Part shown: one piece after another, positions 1,825 to 8,916 of the stretch
How the letters are laid out: every line of letters begins with the position of its first letter
Position numbering within the stretch: position 1 is the stretch's first letter
IMG/VR virus record: IMGVR_UViG_2698536505_000015
Length of the DNA: 8,994 nt
Strand: one strand, 5' to 3'
From: a virus
Lineage: Duplodnaviria; Heunggongvirae; Uroviricota; Caudoviricetes
Translations under genes and position numbers: made by a program
The notes under the pieces: model-generated
What the model saw: only the letters and a program-made list of their open reading frames with translations
The model's database searches: none
What the model was told of the DNA's origin: nothing

Positions 1825-3282
1825 TTAGGAGCGCCAAAAAAAACCTGAAAACAATATAATAACAGGATAAATTTCAAGGCGACCAAGAATCATAGCTATG
1901 CACATTAAACATTTTGCAATGTCATTAAGCACTCCGAATGACGATGCAGTAGCCCCAAAACCTAATCCCATATTATTAATACATGCAGCCACTGTTGCAA
2001 ATGATGTAAGAAAATCATATCCCATACCATTTAACACCAGTATAAAAAACACCGTGAAGAGAGTATAAAGAAAAAAGAAACTCCATACAGACCTCATTAC
2101 ACGATCTGTAACTATCTTCCCTCCTACATTTACACTCAACAACGCTCTGGGATGAGAAAGCTGATTTATCTCGTGTTTGCTTTGTTTGAAAAGTATAAGA
2201 AATCGAAGTGACTTAATTCCACCACAAGTTGAACCTATACATCCCCCAAAGAAACTTGACAACAGCAAAAACACTATCGTGTGCGTGGGCCAACTTGCAT
2301 AATCCTGCGTAGCTAAACCATTATCAGTGAGCATGGAGCTGGCAAGAAAAAACGAATGAATAAAACTTCCATGCAAGTCATACATACCTATATGCCAGAC
2401 CTGGAAAGAGGTAACAATGATCACCCCTAAGGCTATTAACAGAAAGAAACGAAGTTCAATATCTCTGATTAAAGGTTTTATCGTTTTCCTGCTAATAACA
2501 ATATACCAAAGAGTGAAGTTGAAAGCCGATAGCAGGGAAAAAGAACCAGCCACCAGCTCAACCAAATAGTTATTAAAATATCCGATACTCTCGCTATGAG
2601 TTGAGAAACCACCAAGCGAAACTGTGGAAATCCCGTGACAAATAGCATCAAACAAAGGCATTCCTGCAAGTCTATAACAGACAATACAAGCAATACCTAA
2701 TAAAGAATAAGTTATCCACAGTGTCCGTGACGTATCGGCCAGGCGGGGAGTGAGTTTGTCATCCTTAAATGGCCCCGGCATTTCTGACTGATAAAGCTTT
2801 GCACCACCAATACCCAATAATGGCAATACAGCAACCGCCAGAACAATAACTCCTAAACCACCTATAAAATTTAACTGTGACCGATAGTACAAATATGCCC
2901 GAGGTAATGAACTAACATCATCAATTACAGTTGCTCCTGTTGTTGTTATTCCAGAAACCCCTTCAAACAGAGCATCAATGAACGTTAAATTAAGTTCTGA
3001 GTCAATCCATAAAGGGAATGCACTAATAACAGAAAACAAAATCCAAAACATTACAATTATAATAAACCCATCACGGGTACGTAATTGAATGCCAGATTTC
3101 TTAGTTGTATACCACGCTCCGCCACCAATGCAAAAAAATATAACGAAAGTTATAAAGAAAACGAACAGGATTTTTTCTTTATAAAACAATGCTACAACCA
3201 TTGGTGGCAACATTGAAAGACTATAGAGCCAAACCAGGAACCCACACATATGAGTAACAACTCTTACATGAGATGTATTCAT
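1825..3282 (-). CDS. trkG: TrkH/TrkG-family potassium uptake membrane protein (Rac-type trkG moron)
   Basis: Polytopic membrane protein, 485 aa from the ATG at 3282 (the ORF-track start at 3300 is a TTG extension); repeated pore-loop-like glycine motifs (SGITTTGATV, GGFSTHSESIGY, GGCIGSTCGGIK); strong resemblance to E. coli TrkG/TrkH from memory; gene and upstream region visibly more AT-rich than flanking phage genes. Confidence 0.9.
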   Translation of the reverse strand: MNTSHVRVVTHMCGFLVWLYSLSMLPPMVVALFYKEKILFVFFITFVIFFCIGGGAWYTTKKSGIQLRTRDGFIIIVMFWILFSVISAFPLWIDSELNLTFIDALFEGVSGITTTGATVIDDVSSLPRAYLYYRSQLNFIGGLGVIVLAVAVLPLLGIGGAKLYQSEMPGPFKDDKLTPRLADTSRTLWITYSLLGIACIVCYRLAGMPLFDAICHGISTVSLGGFSTHSESIGYFNNYLVELVAGSFSLLSAFNFTLWYIVISRKTIKPLIRDIELRFFLLIALGVIIVTSFQVWHIGMYDLHGSFIHSFFLASSMLTDNGLATQDYASWPTHTIVFLLLSSFFGGCIGSTCGGIKSLRFLILFKQSKHEINQLSHPRALLSVNVGGKIVTDRVMRSVWSFFFLYTLFTVFFILVLNGMGYDFLTSFATVAACINNMGLGFGATASSFGVLNDIAKCLMCIAMILGRLEIYPVIILFSGFFWRS

Positions 3283-3419
3283 ATCTAAATATTCTTTCAA
3301 TTATAACCACCTTGCTGCAATATTATGATTATACTGTATAAAATTTAACTCCTCTTAGATCTTACTTCACTGTTCCTTATGAAACAATCATCAAAATGAA
3401 TCATATTGTAGTTAAGATT

Positions 3420-3884
3420 TTACTTTAAACACTGCTCGGTTATGTATTGCTGAGCACCTTCAAGTTGGGCCTGCATCATTACCAGTCGTTCCCGGAGGGT
3501 GAAATAATCCCGTTCAGCGGTGTCTGCCAGTCGGGGGGAGGCTGCATTATCCACGCCGGAGGCGGTGGTGGCTTCACGCACTGACTGACAGACTGCTTTG
3601 ATGTGCAACCGACGACGACCAGCGGCAACATCATCACGCAGAACATCATTTTCAGCTTTCGCATCAGCTAACTCCTTCGTGTATTTTGCATCGAGCGCAG
3701 CAACATCACGCTGACGCATCTGCATGTCAGTAATTGCCGCGTTCGCCAGCTTCAGTTCTCTGGCATTTTTGTCGCGCTGTTCTTTGTAGGCGATGGCGTT
3801 ATCACGGTAATGATTAACACCCCATGACAGGCAGACGACGATGCAGATAACCAGAGCGGAGATAATCGCGGTTACTCTGTTCAT
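3420..3884 (-). CDS. Rz: Rz i-spanin (inner-membrane spanin)
   Basis: N-terminal TM segment ([18 protein letters not shown]) plus coiled-coil-rich periplasmic domain; near-identical to lambda Rz from memory. Start taken as the ATG at 3884, which overlaps the R stop (ATGA); the ORF-track GTG at 3896 is a probable extension. Confidence 0.85.
3479..3664 (-). CDS. Rz1: Rz1 o-spanin (outer-membrane lipoprotein), embedded in the +1 frame of Rz
   Basis: 61-aa ORF wholly inside Rz; lipobox LVVVGC; proline-rich mature part ([15 protein letters not shown]); matches lambda Rz1 from memory. Confidence 0.85.
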
Positions 3885-4378
3885 TGCTGACCCCACAAAC
3901 AGATTTCACGCTCAATCTCACGACGAGTCATGAGACCTTTCCATTGCTTACCGCCAGCATATGTCCAGCGACGTAGCTGATCACATGCGCCTTTGATATC
4001 GCCCTGGTTTATTTTGCGAAGAAGCGTCGATGTTCTGAAATTGCCAGCACCCACGTTGTAAACGAATGAGTAAAGAGCGCCGCGCGTTGTTTCCGGTATA
4101 TCGACTTTGATGTACGGGTTAATTTGTCTGGCGACCGTGGCAAGGTCTTTATTCAGGAGGGCTTTGCATTCTGCTTTGGTATACGTTTTACCGAGCATGA
4201 TGTCTTTTCCTGTATGCCCGTGACATACAGTCCATACACCAACAATATCTTTGTATGGTATGTAGCTGACACCTTCCAGACCATCGTTACCACTTGGGCC
4301 AGTGATTAACACTGATGCTATAGCAATTGCTCCGCCACCAATAGCAGCAGCAACGACTTTTCGTAATGATGGAGGCAT
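3881..4378 (-). CDS. R: SAR endolysin (phage-21 R-type lysozyme with N-terminal signal-anchor-release domain)
   Basis: N-terminal Gly/Ala-rich weakly hydrophobic segment ([20 protein letters not shown]) followed by a T4-lysozyme-like Glu...Asp...Thr region ([16 protein letters not shown]); start overlaps the holin stop (TAATG). Confidence 0.9.
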
Positions 4379-4593
4379 TATTCACCTCTCGCAGCCTTGC
4401 GCTTATCTTCTTTAATCTTGAAATAAAGGTTTGTCAGGTACGTCAGCAGGCCAAATACCAGACTACCCAGCACACCGATTGCAGCCCACTGTGACGGAGT
4501 TACTCTATCGAGCAACTGTAAAAACCAGTAGCCAGCACTGCCTGCGGAGGTGCCGTAGGCAATGCCTGTTGAAATTTTGTCCATGGATTTCAT
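4378..4593 (-). CDS. S: Class II holin / pinholin (phage-21 S-type) with dual-start motif
   Basis: Two TM segments; begins MKSMDK (Met1 and Met4 dual start, antiholin/holin); strong SD GGAGGTGA upstream of the ATG at 4593; matches S21/EssD from memory. The ORF-track extension to 4650 lacks an RBS and is not supported. Confidence 0.85.
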
Positions 4594-4691
4594 AGCCTCA
4601 CCTCCGCACGGAACGGATGGCATAGTTATTATGTGTAGGCTTTCAGACACATCAATCAGAGCCTTAATTGATATATATGCTGGAGACGATG

Positions 4692-4844: not shown

Positions 4845-5240
4845 CTAACCTCGCATGTCAAAGCCAGATTTCTGAAAATCTCTGTAGACTTCCGGATTGT
4901 TGAAGGCCGGAAATTTGGCTTTATGAGCTGCGGACTTTATCGCTTCGCAATAGGCTTTATCACCGTTACTGGTAGATATTTTTAACGCCGTGCCATCCTG
5001 AGAGAATTCCATATGCAACCTGCATTTTTTCCCTTTCCAGTTATGCGGCTCATCAAGTTTGGCATTAATTGCAGCTCTGATTCCCCGCGCTTGCGCCCCC
5101 CATTCATCCTGATCATCCCAGCGTCCTGAACTGCAACTACCTGTAGCAGTAGTTTTGTGGCAATCTGAAGGGTGTAAAGGTGTGCATCCCGCAACAAAAC
5201 CGACCCAAAAAGTCAACATAACGATTTTCTTTAATCCCAC
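4845..5240 (-). CDS. Lipoprotein with TolA C-terminal domain (domain III)-like mature region, paralog 2
   Basis: GTG start with GAGGAG SD 7 nt upstream; signal peptide with lipobox FVAGC; mature part shares GK.C.L...DG.L.I...GD..C.A...AA..AK.P....VY..F pattern, including a Cys pair, with paralog 1 and with E. coli TolA domain III as recalled. Confidence 0.7.
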   Translation of the reverse strand: MGLKKIVMLTFWVGFVAGCTPLHPSDCHKTTATGSCSSGRWDDQDEWGAQARGIRAAINAKLDEPHNWKGKKCRLHMEFSQDGTALKISTSNGDKAYCEAIKSAAHKAKFPAFNNPEVYRDFQKSGFDMRG

Positions 5241-5390: not shown

Positions 5391-5819
5391 TCAGGGTTTA
5401 AAATCCAGCACCCCATTTTGAAATACTTTATATACTTCCGGCGAAGGGGGGGCAGGTATATCAGCATTCTTTATCGCATTCATCGCTTCACGACATAAAT
5501 CGAGGTCTCCACTTTCTCTTTTAACCTCCAGTAGAAGGCCATTCGGGGCCATATGCATTCTCAGTGTACACTCTTTTCCTGAATACTTACTCGCATCCCC
5601 GAACTGTTTTTCGATGGCGCTCTTGATTTGATGGGCATACAGACGGATATCCTCACTAACATCAGAAGTACGTTCAGATGAACTCACATACTGTGTCTCT
5701 ATTGCTTTATCGGAGTAATATGATGTACGGTCATGATAATTTGTCGATACAGCATCAGTGCACCCGATAATAATCCCACTAATAATCAACGTAAGAATTG
5801 ATGCGCTACGAAAACCCAT
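5391..5819 (-). CDS. Lipoprotein with TolA C-terminal domain (domain III)-like mature region, paralog 1
   Basis: ATG with GAGGA SD; signal peptide with lipobox IIGC; C-terminal 85 aa (YAHQIKSAIEKQFGDASKYSGKECTLRMHMAPNGLLLEVKRESGDLDLCREAMNAIKNADIPAPPSPEVYKVFQNGVLDFKP) aligns closely with the C-terminus of E. coli TolA as recalled. Confidence 0.8.
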   Translation of the reverse strand: MGFRSASILTLIISGIIIGCTDAVSTNYHDRTSYYSDKAIETQYVSSSERTSDVSEDIRLYAHQIKSAIEKQFGDASKYSGKECTLRMHMAPNGLLLEVKRESGDLDLCREAMNAIKNADIPAPPSPEVYKVFQNGVLDFKP

Positions 5820-5878: not shown

Positions 5879-6407
5879 ACAGCGAATCAGATCAAATAAA
5901 ACGCACATTTGTTAACATTTACACAAAGTCTGCGTGGGATATTCTGAAAGAATATCCATAATGTGGAGAGAATCTATTGAAGTGCATGGTGCCGGGTGCC
6001 TCCCGGTGAACAAAATGTTCGTGATACCTGTCGGCGACAGAAAAGGTTAATGGTATCACCCCACCGCACAGGGGGATTCACCATGCAGGAGTTTTCTTAG
6101 CAAACTCACTGCGCGCCCGGCAACTCCCAACCACATAAAATGCGGAGTTTGTGGTATTTATGCATATAACTCGCAGGAATTATCTTAAAAAACTGATGTC
6201 GATCCGGATTAAAAAGAAGCAGGTCATCATCAGATGACTGGAAAAAAGGAAAACAAAAAATACTCATCATACAGTTTTGATTGCAGGGATGAGCCTGCTA
6301 TGCACAATATGCAGAATATAAGCAAGATAAAAATATGCAGGCATATTATTTCGGATTTTGTTATTAACACAACCTTTTTAATAATCATTTGGCATACAAT
6401 AAACCAG

Positions 6408-6838: not shown

Positions 6839-6867
6839 ATTGAAGCAGTTTATACGTAAGAAATCAA
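6839..6867 (-). promoter_or_regulatory. Candidate late promoter (pR'-like) directly downstream of the Q-position gene
   Basis: Minus-strand -35 TTGATT (6862-6867, overlapping the Q stop codon), 17-bp spacer, -10 TTCAAT (6839-6844); placement analogous to lambda pR' after Q; predicted short transcript ends at the 6757-6783 terminator. Confidence 0.3.
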
Positions 6868-7406
6868 GCCATTTTCTCAGCAAATGATTCACGCATGGGA
6901 ATATATAGGGCATACTCAGCAACAGCTAACCAATTAGCAATCCGTTTTTCGCATGTGCTAAAACACCACTCTGGGTGTGCATCATTTAGCAATTCAGCCA
7001 TTTTGCGCTTAGTCATCCCCCGCCCTTCATAGCGTTGCCGGAGAATGCAAATCAATCCTGGATGCTCTGCCAGCACCTCACTTATGACTCGATCAATACA
7101 TAACGCCTCTGCATCAGTACAATGCGCCAGCCAGCTCTTTTGCTTGCCGTTGATCATCTCTCGCAAAAACGCTTCCAGCTCAGCTTTCTCTATTCCCGCT
7201 TTTTTCATTCTGCGCAGGGCTTCATTAATGGCTGTTTTCGTCAGTTTTTTGGATGCCAACAACTGATTGAACATATTCCCTGACCTGCCACCGCCAATAT
7301 ACGACCAGCGCCCCCACATACGTAGTTTTCCCTGAATCCAGACACTTTCCAGCGTGGTGAGGCGAAGGTGTTCTCCGCTTTTTCCTGTATTCGTTGGGTA
7401 AATCAT
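6864..7406 (-). CDS. Putative late-gene antiterminator (Q-position protein)
   Basis: 180-aa ORF immediately upstream of the candidate late promoter/terminator and lysis genes; start overlaps the stop of the upstream gene (ATGA). Family assignment rests mainly on position. Confidence 0.5.
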   Translation of the reverse strand: MIYPTNTGKSGEHLRLTTLESVWIQGKLRMWGRWSYIGGGRSGNMFNQLLASKKLTKTAINEALRRMKKAGIEKAELEAFLREMINGKQKSWLAHCTDAEALCIDRVISEVLAEHPGLICILRQRYEGRGMTKRKMAELLNDAHPEWCFSTCEKRIANWLAVAEYALYIPMRESFAEKMA

Positions 7407-7693
7407 AAATGACCTTTCTTTCTCCAGATTTCTTGTGTGCGAAAAACCCCTTCAGCATGCATCAGGCGCAATTCTTCTTTGGTGTAATCGCTGGTTTTTA
7501 CCCGCCCGTCGATTAGATCGTGGCATGAGCTACAGGCTATCGCCGCCTGCATATCGTGTGGTTTTGTCGCTGTTCCGCACGTCCCCGCCAGCCTGTAATG
7601 CGCCAGCACAGAGGTTTCGGGATTGTGATTGCAGTAGCCAGGGATTCTGATCTGGCACATCTGGCCTTTAGCCGCTTTACGTAAATTCACCAT
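7403..7693 (-). CDS. ybcO: YbcO-like DUF1364 zinc-binding protein (putative nuclease of lambdoid nin regions)
   Basis: 96 aa; four-Cys pattern (CQIRIPGYC ... CSSCHD); N-terminal MVNLRKAAKGQMCQIRIPGYCNHNPETSVLAH matches E. coli DLP12 YbcO as recalled; start overlaps the upstream stop (TAATG). Confidence 0.7.
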   Translation of the reverse strand: MVNLRKAAKGQMCQIRIPGYCNHNPETSVLAHYRLAGTCGTATKPHDMQAAIACSSCHDLIDGRVKTSDYTKEELRLMHAEGVFRTQEIWRKKGHL

Positions 7694-8292
7694 TACGCAA
7701 ACTCCAGTAGTTGTGCGGCCACATTTTCAACTTCCTCCTGAGAGGAGAATTTACGGAACAGAATCCAGTTCCACAGCACATTCAGTACAGATTTATAAAC
7801 CTGCTGAAACTCGACTTCGTCCACATTCGCAAAAGCGATGGATTTTGCCCGACGCCCACGGCTACCGTCCGGATAAATATGCTCGGTGTAAAATCCGGCC
7901 TGAATGGTTACCCACTCGCGGAAAGCCTCAAACGACTTTAGCAACGCCGTATCCCGGGTTCTACGAGTCGCAACGGTGTTAAGGTATTGCTCTGCGGCAT
8001 CACTCAGGGCTGGCGTGTGTTCCCGACCAACTGATTCGCACAGGTAATCAACGAAACCAGACAGCAGTTCTCGTTCGCGAGGCGTGATCGCCCCACCGAC
8101 CGGAGTCCAGTAATCGAATCCCAGTTGCAGGAGTTTGAAAAAACGCTTGTGGAATGCGTAGTTACGCACACGCTTAAAGTCTGCGTGTATCCACTCACCT
8201 ATTTTGATTTGATGCAGAAAATCGCAACTCTCCGGCGTCGCCGGGAGAAGTAAACCAGAAGAAGTTTGTTTGACCAGTTGTATATGCGCCAT
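7693..8292 (-). CDS. DUF1367-like nin-region phage protein (YbcN-position)
   Basis: 199-aa ORF, first of three translationally coupled genes; family assignment from memory of lambdoid nin-region proteins, not verified. Confidence 0.5.
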   Translation of the reverse strand: MAHIQLVKQTSSGLLLPATPESCDFLHQIKIGEWIHADFKRVRNYAFHKRFFKLLQLGFDYWTPVGGAITPRERELLSGFVDYLCESVGREHTPALSDAAEQYLNTVATRRTRDTALLKSFEAFREWVTIQAGFYTEHIYPDGSRGRRAKSIAFANVDEVEFQQVYKSVLNVLWNWILFRKFSSQEEVENVAAQLLEFA

Positions 8293-8350
8293 TTCTCAAT
8301 CTCTCGATGGCGCAGTGCAGCAGATGCCAGTTGTTCAGGCTGACGTATAA

Positions 8351-8378
8351 AGTATAAATAAACTGGTTCCAGTGTAAA
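8351..8378 (-). promoter_or_regulatory. Candidate sigma70 promoter upstream of the DUF1367-DUF1364-Q gene trio
   Basis: Minus-strand -35 TTTACA (8373-8378), 16-bp spacer, -10 TATACT (8351-8356), about 55 nt upstream of the ATG at 8292. Confidence 0.3.
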
Positions 8379-8565
8379 GCCCCCACCTTAATGGAATAAA
8401 AACCAAACAACAGATTGCTGGGATACAAACAACGCTTATTATTAAAAGCGGTTAAACAAATTAAATTTTAATGTTATGCAAATTTGTCAGATCACCATAA
8501 TATCTCATTTGAAAACCGCTGAAATAACAATCCTATCAGGATTAATCATATTAAGGTGAGTAAAT

Positions 8566-8652
8566 ATGGAAAACAACAAATCTGCACATTACGCTCCTTT
8601 TTTATCTGTAATACTTTTTGTTTTTTGCTGTGTATGGGCATTATTTTTATAA
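8566..8652 (+). CDS. Small hydrophobic protein, 28 aa (MENNKSAHYAPFLSVILFVFCCVWALFL); candidate small membrane protein or type-I-toxin-like peptide
   Basis: ATG preceded by AAGGTGAG Shine-Dalgarno at 6-nt spacing; short polar N-terminus followed by a single predicted TM helix; the only plus-strand ORF with a strong RBS; below the length cutoff of the supplied ORF track. Confidence 0.35.
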   Translation: MENNKSAHYAPFLSVILFVFCCVWALFL

Positions 8653-8729
8653 AAATATTCACAGATAAAATAAACTCGCCGAATCAGGTTAAGTGTGGGT
8701 GCGTTGAGGATGCCTGACACATCAGAGGC

Positions 8730-8751
8730 GGCGAGGGATTTCTCCCTCGCC
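8730..8751 (-). other. GC-rich hairpin 10 nt after the hok stop codon (3' UTR stem-loop)
   Basis: Perfect 9-bp inverted repeat ggcgaggga (8730-8738) / tccctcgcc (8743-8751) with 4-nt loop; no U-tract follows on either strand, so it looks like an RNA stability or folding element rather than a canonical terminator. Confidence 0.4.
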
Positions 8752-8760
8752 TAGTCACTC

Positions 8761-8916
8761 TTACTCCTCAGGTTCGTAAGCTGTGAAGACAGCGACCTCC
8801 GTCTGACCGGTTCGGATTCGCACCTCGCAGAGGTCTTTCCTCGTTACCAGTGCCGTCACTATGACGGTTAAACAGATGACAATCAGTGCGACTAACATCG
8901 CCTTTTGCTGCTTCAT
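8761..8916 (-). CDS. hok: Hok/Gef-family type I toxin (HokD/RelF-like)
   Basis: Hand translation gives MKQQKAMLVALIVICLTVIVTALVTRKDLCEVRIRTGQTEVAVFTAYEPEE (51 aa), the Hok/Gef pattern with TM helix and conserved C..C; AGGAGAA SD upstream; below the ORF-track cutoff. Confidence 0.85.
   Translation of the reverse strand: MKQQKAMLVALIVICLTVIVTALVTRKDLCEVRIRTGQTEVAVFTAYEPEE

Follow-up and report, generated by a model that had tools for sequence, protein, structure and literature searches.

The type I toxins of Escherichia coli are very short (ShoB, 26 amino acids; IbsC, 19; TisB, 29; ZorO, 29; DinQ, 27), and Hok, at approximately 50 amino acids, combines a helix at its N-terminus with conserved Cys residues and a tail in the periplasm. 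Tagging and ribosome profiling have revealed small inner-membrane proteins in E. coli K-12, which usually bind larger membrane proteins; those of the YohP, MgtS and AcrZ type are mostly encoded in the core genome, and their synthesis has been shown by experiment. Lambdoid phages carry morons; in the classical examples both promoter and terminator can be recognised, and the encoded proteins are larger. Here we describe a 28-codon open reading frame (ORF) on the plus strand of IMG/VR virus record IMGVR_UViG_2698536505_000015 (8,994 nucleotides (nt); the whole of this stretch is referred to as the window), an E. coli prophage of the lambdoid Rac/Qin type. This frame, hereafter the small ORF, probably represents a real gene, absent from annotation, that encodes a tiny membrane peptide. 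On the sequence evidence we consider it likely that a membrane peptide of some kind is translated from it, and place slightly better than an even chance on such a peptide acting without a dedicated RNA antitoxin. The finding is a prediction made by computation, and the kind of gene is a familiar one—another prophage small membrane protein, with a new sequence family.

The small ORF and its predicted product

The predicted peptide, MENNKSAHYAPFLSVILFVFCCVWALFL, comprises 11 polar residues followed by 17 hydrophobic residues that extend to the C-terminus (peak mean Kyte–Doolittle hydropathy over a 17-residue window, 2.86). An earlier note on this DNA had given the coordinates and the peptide and had proposed the architecture of a small membrane protein; the former proved exact and the latter was borne out. 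The length of 28 residues (below 60) and the hydrophobic segment, which is present in all alleles and would target the membrane, are also those of the small hydrophobic peptides that act as type I toxins.

The start codon is retained in every allele, and a Shine–Dalgarno (SD)-like element ahead of it in nearly every one. The earlier note called this element strong, which overstates it: its pairing energy with the 3′ end of 16S rRNA (−5.2 kcal/mol) is moderate, approximately 12% of all ATGs in the window score −6 kcal/mol or better, and the small ORF ranks 12th among the 131 plus-strand starts of the window. Because the element is only moderate by this binding-energy measure, the further claim that the small ORF is the only one on the plus strand with a convincing ribosome-binding site fails. 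The commonest allele has AAAGTGAG at this position (weaker, at −4.4 kcal/mol) and allele B (defined below) has AAGGTGGT (−8.4 kcal/mol). The small ORF lies in a 468-nt AT-rich gap between the DUF1367 gene and hokD. When this gap (8293–8760) was shuffled with dinucleotide content preserved (n = 1,000), 0.1% of the shuffles gave an equal combination of ORF, SD element and hydrophobic stretch, scored as an ATG-initiated ORF of 25–60 amino acids, an SD energy of −5.2 kcal/mol or lower and a 17-residue window with a mean hydropathy of at least 2.5.

Intactness and selective constraint

Copies of the locus were gathered in three ways, none of which presupposed an intact frame. Viral contigs were scanned with a conserved non-coding stretch that lies ahead of the small ORF (the anchor block); this retrieved 161 copies, and all of the 159 that are not cut by a contig end encode exactly 28 residues. 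A scan of metagenomes fixed only on codons 1–18 retrieved 71 copies, each with an intact C-terminal half and stop codon. A tandem query of both alleles against 5.8 billion predicted proteins, a search that sees only versions long enough to be called, returned four aberrant versions, all of the small-ORF locus: two frameshifts, one interruption and one fusion (database variant P0001, 58 amino acids) in which a TGA-to-GGA change reads through from an upstream 27-codon ORF into the small ORF. In total, 241 instances yielded 21 distinct ORF sequences belonging to two alleles, A (MENNKSAHYAPFLSVILFV[FL]CC[VA]WALFL; carried by the window) and B (MENNKFAHLAPFLSVILFACCFIWALFL). The earlier note had looked to conservation in homologous prophages as a check and to frameshifts in close homologues as a sign against the gene. 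The frame is conserved in 159/159 and 71/71 copies; disrupted forms do occur (three variants, five sequences), although none is among the 230 directly sampled copies. Disruption, though it happens, is therefore rare. The upstream 27-codon ORF (MQICQITIISHLKTAEITILSGLIILR; 8476–8559 (+)) is in frame with the small ORF, with TGA and two codons between them, and is not kept in allele B.

Comparison of the two alleles places two islands of conservation within a diverged region. Identity between A and B is 59% at 8390–8433, 87% across the anchor block (8434–8480), 56% at 8481–8552 and 84% across the small ORF, and falls to approximately 40% (unrelated sequence) past its stop codon, the homology ending 1–3 nt beyond the stop; the segment 8317–8389 is 89–96% conserved. 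The ORF is kept better than its upstream spacer (the 72 nt before the SD element), both between alleles (Fisher P = 1.3e-4) and within allele A (97% versus 77% identity, P = 2.4e-4), and contains no indels, whereas several occur upstream of it. Within the ORF the alleles differ by 16–19%, with a ratio of non-synonymous to synonymous polymorphism (pN/pS) of 0.24–0.38. Among about 40 distinct mutations, 18 are synonymous and 21 non-synonymous (expected synonymous fraction, 0.286; P = 0.02), compared with 7 and 13 synonymous mutations in the other two frames. Substitutions within the helix mostly exchange one hydrophobic residue for another, and M1–N4, H8, P11, S14, I16–F18, C21, W24, A25, F27 and L28 are invariant. 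Start, frame and stop are thus kept under purifying selection in a family of only two alleles, and because the family is shallow the selection statistics are modest; taken singly each test is of modest weight, but jointly they favour a translated gene. In intactness, constraint and a pN/pS below 1, the small ORF behaves as a real gene.

A mosaic cassette with variable neighbours

The small ORF is the only plausible ORF on a mosaic cassette of 355 base pairs (bp) delimited by blastn breakpoints, at the border of a variable cargo slot and the DUF1367–DUF1364–Q block. The same slot is filled by a 'rem' cassette in the Qin prophage of K-12 and in the Rac prophage of strain 442/2. The rightward phage operon of the window is on the minus strand, and in the inducible phages vB_EcoS-683R6 and vB_EcoS-666R9 the small ORF likewise opposes all flanking early and late genes. 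These two phages share one backbone (cI, cro, cII, O, dnaC-like, ydaW, lygF, variable cargo, DUF1367, ybcO, Q, lysis, trkG).

The cargo to the right of the cassette varies between relBE–hokD, another hok, the iteS peptidase gene and a DUF1971/TehB gene. The earlier note had stressed that the small ORF converges on hok, and in the window this orientation stands, the two stop codons being 108 nt apart. A functional link does not follow: a convergent hok is found in only 95 of the 161 copies, for which reason we regard the association as incidental, and the remaining 66 (41%) have another neighbour and no hok. Nor does the small ORF look like a component of a hok/sok unit, as its cassette ends at 8671, before the hokD 3′ homology shared with K-12. 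A cargo hotspot thus lies between lygF and the cassette (to the right of the latter in loci L001–L008, L172 and L173); besides the genes just named it can hold a zeta toxin, an AbiH fragment and insertion sequence (IS) elements, and its iteS, an anti-phage peptidase of the S8 type, occurs with an FtsH-like ATPase.

We propose that the cassette, exchangeable among lambdoid prophages of the Rac/Qin type in E. coli and Shigella, carries a gene whose 28-residue product would consist of a short polar head and one hydrophobic helix that extends to the C-terminus and inserts in the inner membrane, where its target could be the bilayer itself or another membrane protein as partner. Because the gene points against the early-right operon of the phage, it would be transcribed from its own promoter, within the conserved AT-rich upstream block, as a 'moron' expressed in the lysogen; its convergence with hok would be an accident of the cargo currently in the slot. 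The position at the boundary of a slot in which toxin–antitoxin and anti-phage cargo is swapped makes it a reasonable candidate for a membrane-acting accessory function, for which exclusion, toxicity or modulation of a host transporter can be envisaged.

Distribution and annotation

The 271-nt region around the small ORF is present in 1,190 of 5,426 complete E. coli genomes (approximately 22%; 1,170 at a coverage of at least 80%), at identities from 100% down to approximately 75%. If translated, the gene would therefore occur in about that share of the complete genomes of this species, as well as in inducible temperate phages. In a degenerate-codon scan of one genome per species Shigella flexneri was the sole match, tblastn against plasmids and phages returned E. 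coli only, and scans in which a synonymous substitution at Pro11 was imposed gave no match among viral or metagenome contigs. DUF1367 phages that are more distant (Gifsy-1, mEp237 and a Klebsiella phage) have neither space for the cassette nor a counterpart ORF. Within the sequences searched, the family is restricted to Escherichia and Shigella.

The description of the small ORF as unannotated holds: no feature covers it in the records sampled (approximately 40 RefSeq E. coli and 4 phage records), and an exact look-up of eight peptide alleles found none in a collection of 15 billion proteins. No family in Pfam, NCBIfam, PHROGs or PADLOC reached threshold (best matches unrelated, E > 0.04), and Rfam gave nothing meaningful on the small-ORF region, either at gathering thresholds or at E up to 10. 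The peptide strings were not found in paper texts, the Sakai small-ORF supplement holds no match to the peptide, and neither does the article text of a preprint on small proteins of uropathogenic E. coli (UPEC). A preprint on Pas small RNAs (sRNAs) was rejected as a source for this site, as its sRNAs adjoin lysis genes, a different place. K-12 MG1655 lacks the cassette and has the rem gene in its place, which is the likely reason that small-protein screens, most of which use K-12, did not report the peptide.

Candidate regulatory elements within the cassette

The anchor block is probably the promoter and/or the 5′ end of the small-ORF transcript. It forms part of two overlapping inverted repeats (8434–8447/8466–8479 and 8472–8479/8496–8503), so that alternative hairpins are possible, and its candidate roles comprise promoter, operator, element of the 5′ untranslated region (UTR) and weak terminator. 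The candidate 5′-UTR hairpin formed by the second repeat has eight conserved pairs and two inner pairs maintained by compensatory change; in allele B its z-score reaches significance (−4.7 to −6), and in the window the fold is weak (−3.5 kcal/mol, z = −0.8). The best plus-strand promoter candidate, of sigma-70 type, is tentative because an 8-nt insertion displaces its −35 element in allele B. Inspection by eye for an activator site of the CII type (TTGC-N6-TTGC) revealed none.

None of the mRNA folds over the small ORF is significant in the window. A long imperfect hairpin in which the middle of the ORF pairs with the 19 nt past its stop codon has z = −1.5 in the window and −3.1 in locus L004, and is possibly the 3′ stem-loop of the transcript. 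On the minus strand, a promoter-like site back-to-back with the upstream region of the small ORF keeps its position in alleles A and B, as well as in phages whose downstream gene differs; it is a candidate promoter that would supply the Q operon from inside the prophage.

Weighing of alternative explanations

A number of observations weigh against a translated gene. The synonymous excess is modest (P = 0.02–0.07), stop avoidance by itself is not significant (the probability of finding no stop is 0.2), variable sites at the three codon positions number 6, 9 and 13 (a weak third-position bias), and conservation of the ORF may partly serve RNA pairing (codons 8–12 with the SD element and AUG; the middle of the ORF with the 3′ flank). 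The family is shallow (two alleles, 21 sequences, Escherichia and Shigella only) and rare disrupted alleles exist; the SD element is of moderate strength, with an even weaker one in the commonest allele; and 17 hydrophobic residues are short for a complete membrane span. No plus-strand promoter conserved across both alleles could be placed, the candidate at 8415–8442 fitting allele A only. To these can be added the absence of the cassette from K-12 and of the peptide from paper texts.

The weak codon bias, and an intactness that has limited power because diversity is low, would also suit a frame that is untranslated, the region being conserved for an RNA or DNA role and the ORF a by-product of T-rich sequence, which easily encodes hydrophobic peptides. 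The adjoining anchor block is conserved yet non-coding, a conserved promoter-like site lies on the opposite strand 190 nt away, and the hairpins include the ORF itself, so that the region could possibly serve as a convergent transcript, a terminator or insulator between the cargo slot and the Q operon, a 3′ hairpin or part of a divergent promoter. We consider this the chief alternative to a translated gene, but an unlikely one: the synonymous excess is specific to the ORF frame and pN/pS is below 0.4, replacements are conservative and leave a hydrophobic helix in both alleles, the start codon and SD-like element are maintained, the homology ends at the stop codon rather than at a hairpin boundary, the 3′ hairpin exists in allele A only whereas the ORF exists in both, and no fold over the ORF stands out in the window. 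Translation could also matter for what lies downstream, were the small ORF a leader peptide or the first cistron of a plus-strand, lysogen-expressed cargo operon that it controls or accompanies; allele B phages do carry a DUF1971/TehB gene next on the same strand, and vB_EcoS-666R9 has further plus-strand genes. The next gene is nevertheless a convergent hok in the window and most copies and a convergent iteS in others, the DUF1971 gene is approximately 450 nt away with an opposite-strand ORF call in between, a 15-bp terminator-like stem directly follows the ORF in the iteS context, and no alternative terminator/antiterminator pair was found past the ORF, which makes a leader or attenuator role very improbable. 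We give still less credence to a lipoprotein-type signal peptide that frees a very short lipidated peptide, or to the N-terminal remnant of a longer secreted protein, which we regard as extremely improbable. Residues 9–22 gave sub-threshold matches to a lipoprotein family and an Rz-like spanin family, and one minor allele has FAGC, near a lipobox, but both matches are far under the cut-off (13.9 bits versus 35), the other alleles (FVFC, FVLC and LFAC) do not fit the [LVI][ASTVI][GAS]C lipobox, most of them having VFCC, VLCC or ACC, all of them poor as lipoboxes, and MENNKSAHY, the n-region, is without a net positive charge. An origin as the remnant of a longer gene was excluded by the tandem query, in which the only longer relatives were frameshifted, interrupted or read-through versions of the small-ORF locus itself.

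The earlier note had likened the peptide in architecture to several type I toxins. In such a module the peptide would depolarise the membrane and an antisense RNA, from the anchor block or opposite the 5′ UTR, would curb its translation. Size and architecture do resemble those of the ShoB, Ibs, TisB and ZorO class, the prophage slot gathers toxin–antitoxin and defence genes, and the upstream block is conserved above its surroundings, as expected if two overlapping RNAs are both kept. A consensus fold pairs the SD element and AUG with codons 8–12 (CAU...GCUCCUUU), but this fold, which would sequester the SD element, does not reach significance (z = −0.5 to +0.3) and is absent from allele B predictions. 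On the minus strand, a promoter-like site running from 8572 to 8545 is followed by a weak hairpin and T-run from 8450 to 8433; the site, however, matches at 9 of 12 positions, which is the chance level (2 found, 1.6 expected), and is shifted or lost in allele B, the hairpin has 5 bp, the whole minus-strand fold is no better than shuffles (z = −0.9) and the covariation term of the consensus minus-strand structure is positive (no support). A search for an antisense RNA gene with promoter and terminator thus returned only chance-level minus-strand matches, none kept between alleles. An 11-nt direct repeat (8405–8415 and 8571–8581) is not kept in allele B, and a GC stem (8448–8454/8514–8520) was rejected as an antisense-RNA element, being not conserved or not significant. 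No profile of a known toxin family (Hok/Gef, Ldr, Ibs, TisB, ShoB, ZorO, DinQ or Fst) and no Rfam antitoxin RNA matched. The type I toxin reading is consequently unsupported, and we judge a new toxin–antitoxin module of this kind distinctly unlikely. A related and more speculative scheme, which we also doubt, would make the cassette a two-part module—a new membrane-active peptide toxin (or an abortive-infection or lysis-timing effector) with a regulatory RNA or operator in the anchor block. About one-fifth of E. coli strains might carry it, at the margin of the defence and toxin–antitoxin hotspot of their Rac/Qin-type prophages, and it would have gone unseen so far because K-12 has rem instead and gene callers skip 28 codons. 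A membrane peptide without a dedicated RNA antitoxin remains the reading that we prefer.

Features of the surrounding prophage

Features of the cassette and its surroundings are collected in Table 1. The terminator of hokD (8672–8690, with the stem at approximately 8674–8689; in K-12 locus L009, 4033–4052, ACCCGC TTCG GCGGGT and a T-run) has two mismatching substitutions in the stem in the window, which may let transcripts of hokD/relBE run on into the cassette, antisense to the small ORF. Where iteS is the neighbour, a GC-rich stem of 15 bp, flanked on either side by T-runs, lies at most 15 nt past the small ORF (L005, 1737–1770 (+); L172, approximately 7250–7280) and resembles a bidirectional terminator shared with the convergent iteS.

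Table 1 Position and strand of features in the window
Feature	Position	Strand	Remarks
Mosaic cassette with the small ORF	8317–8671	.	355 bp; blastn breakpoints
Small ORF	8566–8652	+	28 codons and TAA; ATG 8566–8568, TAA 8650–8652; peptide MENNKSAHYAPFLSVILFVFCCVWALFL
Shine–Dalgarno-like element AAGGTGAG	8553–8560	+	5 nt ahead of ATG; moderate, −5.2 kcal/mol versus 16S 3′ end
AT-rich anchor block GCTTATTATTAAAAGCGGTTAAACAAATTAAATTTTAATGTTATGCA	8434–8480	.	Second conserved island, 87% A versus B, flanks 56–59%; P = 3e-4
Inverted repeat ATGTTATG (8472–8479) / CATAATAT (8496–8503)	8472–8503	+	Candidate 5′-UTR hairpin, diverged 16-nt loop
Sigma-70-like candidate TTGCTG, 16 nt, TATTAT	8415–8442	+	Best on the plus strand; score 7.4 here, 9.2 in locus L003
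Long imperfect hairpin, mid-ORF with 19 nt past stop	8600–8670	+	20-nt arms, 80% complementary; allele A only
Promoter-like TTTACA, 16 nt, TATACT	8351–8378	−	10/12 matches; toward DUF1367–DUF1364–Q-like block
hokD 3′ region	8672–8760	−	GC hairpin 8730–8751; K-12 homology resumes at 8672
End of relE and hokD	hokD 8761–8916	−	hokD, Hok/Gef toxin; convergent neighbour outside cassette
DUF1367 gene	7693–8292	−	First of conserved DUF1367–DUF1364–DUF1133 (Q-like) block left of cassette
DUF1364	7403–7693	−	
DUF1133 Q-like antiterminator	6864–7406	−	
Lysis genes	3420–4650	−	
trkG-like gene	1825–3300	−	TTG start in mechanical ORF list

Further from the cassette, between the Q-like gene and the lysis genes that follow it, the minus strand has a full-length match to STnc100 (RF02076) at 5930–6116 (86.6 bits versus a gathering threshold of 47). 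A 2026 preprint connects STnc100 with PasD, a group of sRNAs from pathogenic E. coli. Between this match and the holin gene are two paralogous small genes (4845–5240 (−) and 5391–5819 (−); 131 and 142 amino acids) with signal-peptide/lipoprotein-like N-termini, part of the second of which is called a partial TolA in RefSeq. Past the lysis cassette are the trkG-like gene, for a potassium transporter, a ParB-like gene and a 275-amino-acid gene (97–924 (−), 896–1687 (−)), as in Rac-type phages.

Comparison with known systems

The architecture of the small ORF fits best with the non-toxic small inner-membrane proteins of K-12, that is, modulators of the YohP, MgtS and AcrZ type, with which it shares a single helix, a length below 50 amino acids and a history of being overlooked by gene callers. 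It differs from this class in being prophage-borne and absent from K-12, and has no homologue among its members. Type I toxins of E. coli are likewise shorter than 30 amino acids, consist of one hydrophobic helix, are missed by annotation and stand alone in intergenic acquired DNA; the helix of the small ORF reaches the C-terminus as in ShoB and Ibs, and a conserved untranslated region lies upstream, as in these toxins. Unlike them, the small ORF has no sequence similarity to a known toxin, no conserved antisense or divergent sRNA gene that we could find and no significant structure sequestering the SD element. Hok/Gef toxins are also small membrane peptides encoded in the same prophage region, yet none of the Hok models matches the small ORF, which sits apart from the hok unit and in 41% of copies has no hok beside it.

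In its genetic organization the locus resembles lambdoid morons such as lambda bor and lom: a short, self-contained mosaic cassette sits between phage blocks, against the surrounding operon, in some related phages only. In contrast to classical morons, its promoter is only a candidate and a clean terminator past the ORF is found only in the iteS context. The closest counterpart by position is the rem cassette, which occupies the identical slot, between the 3′ end of hok and the DUF1367 or DUF968 block, and represents an allelic alternative; rem, however, encodes an 83-amino-acid soluble-looking protein on the opposite strand, with the phage operon, and has no sequence relationship to the small ORF.

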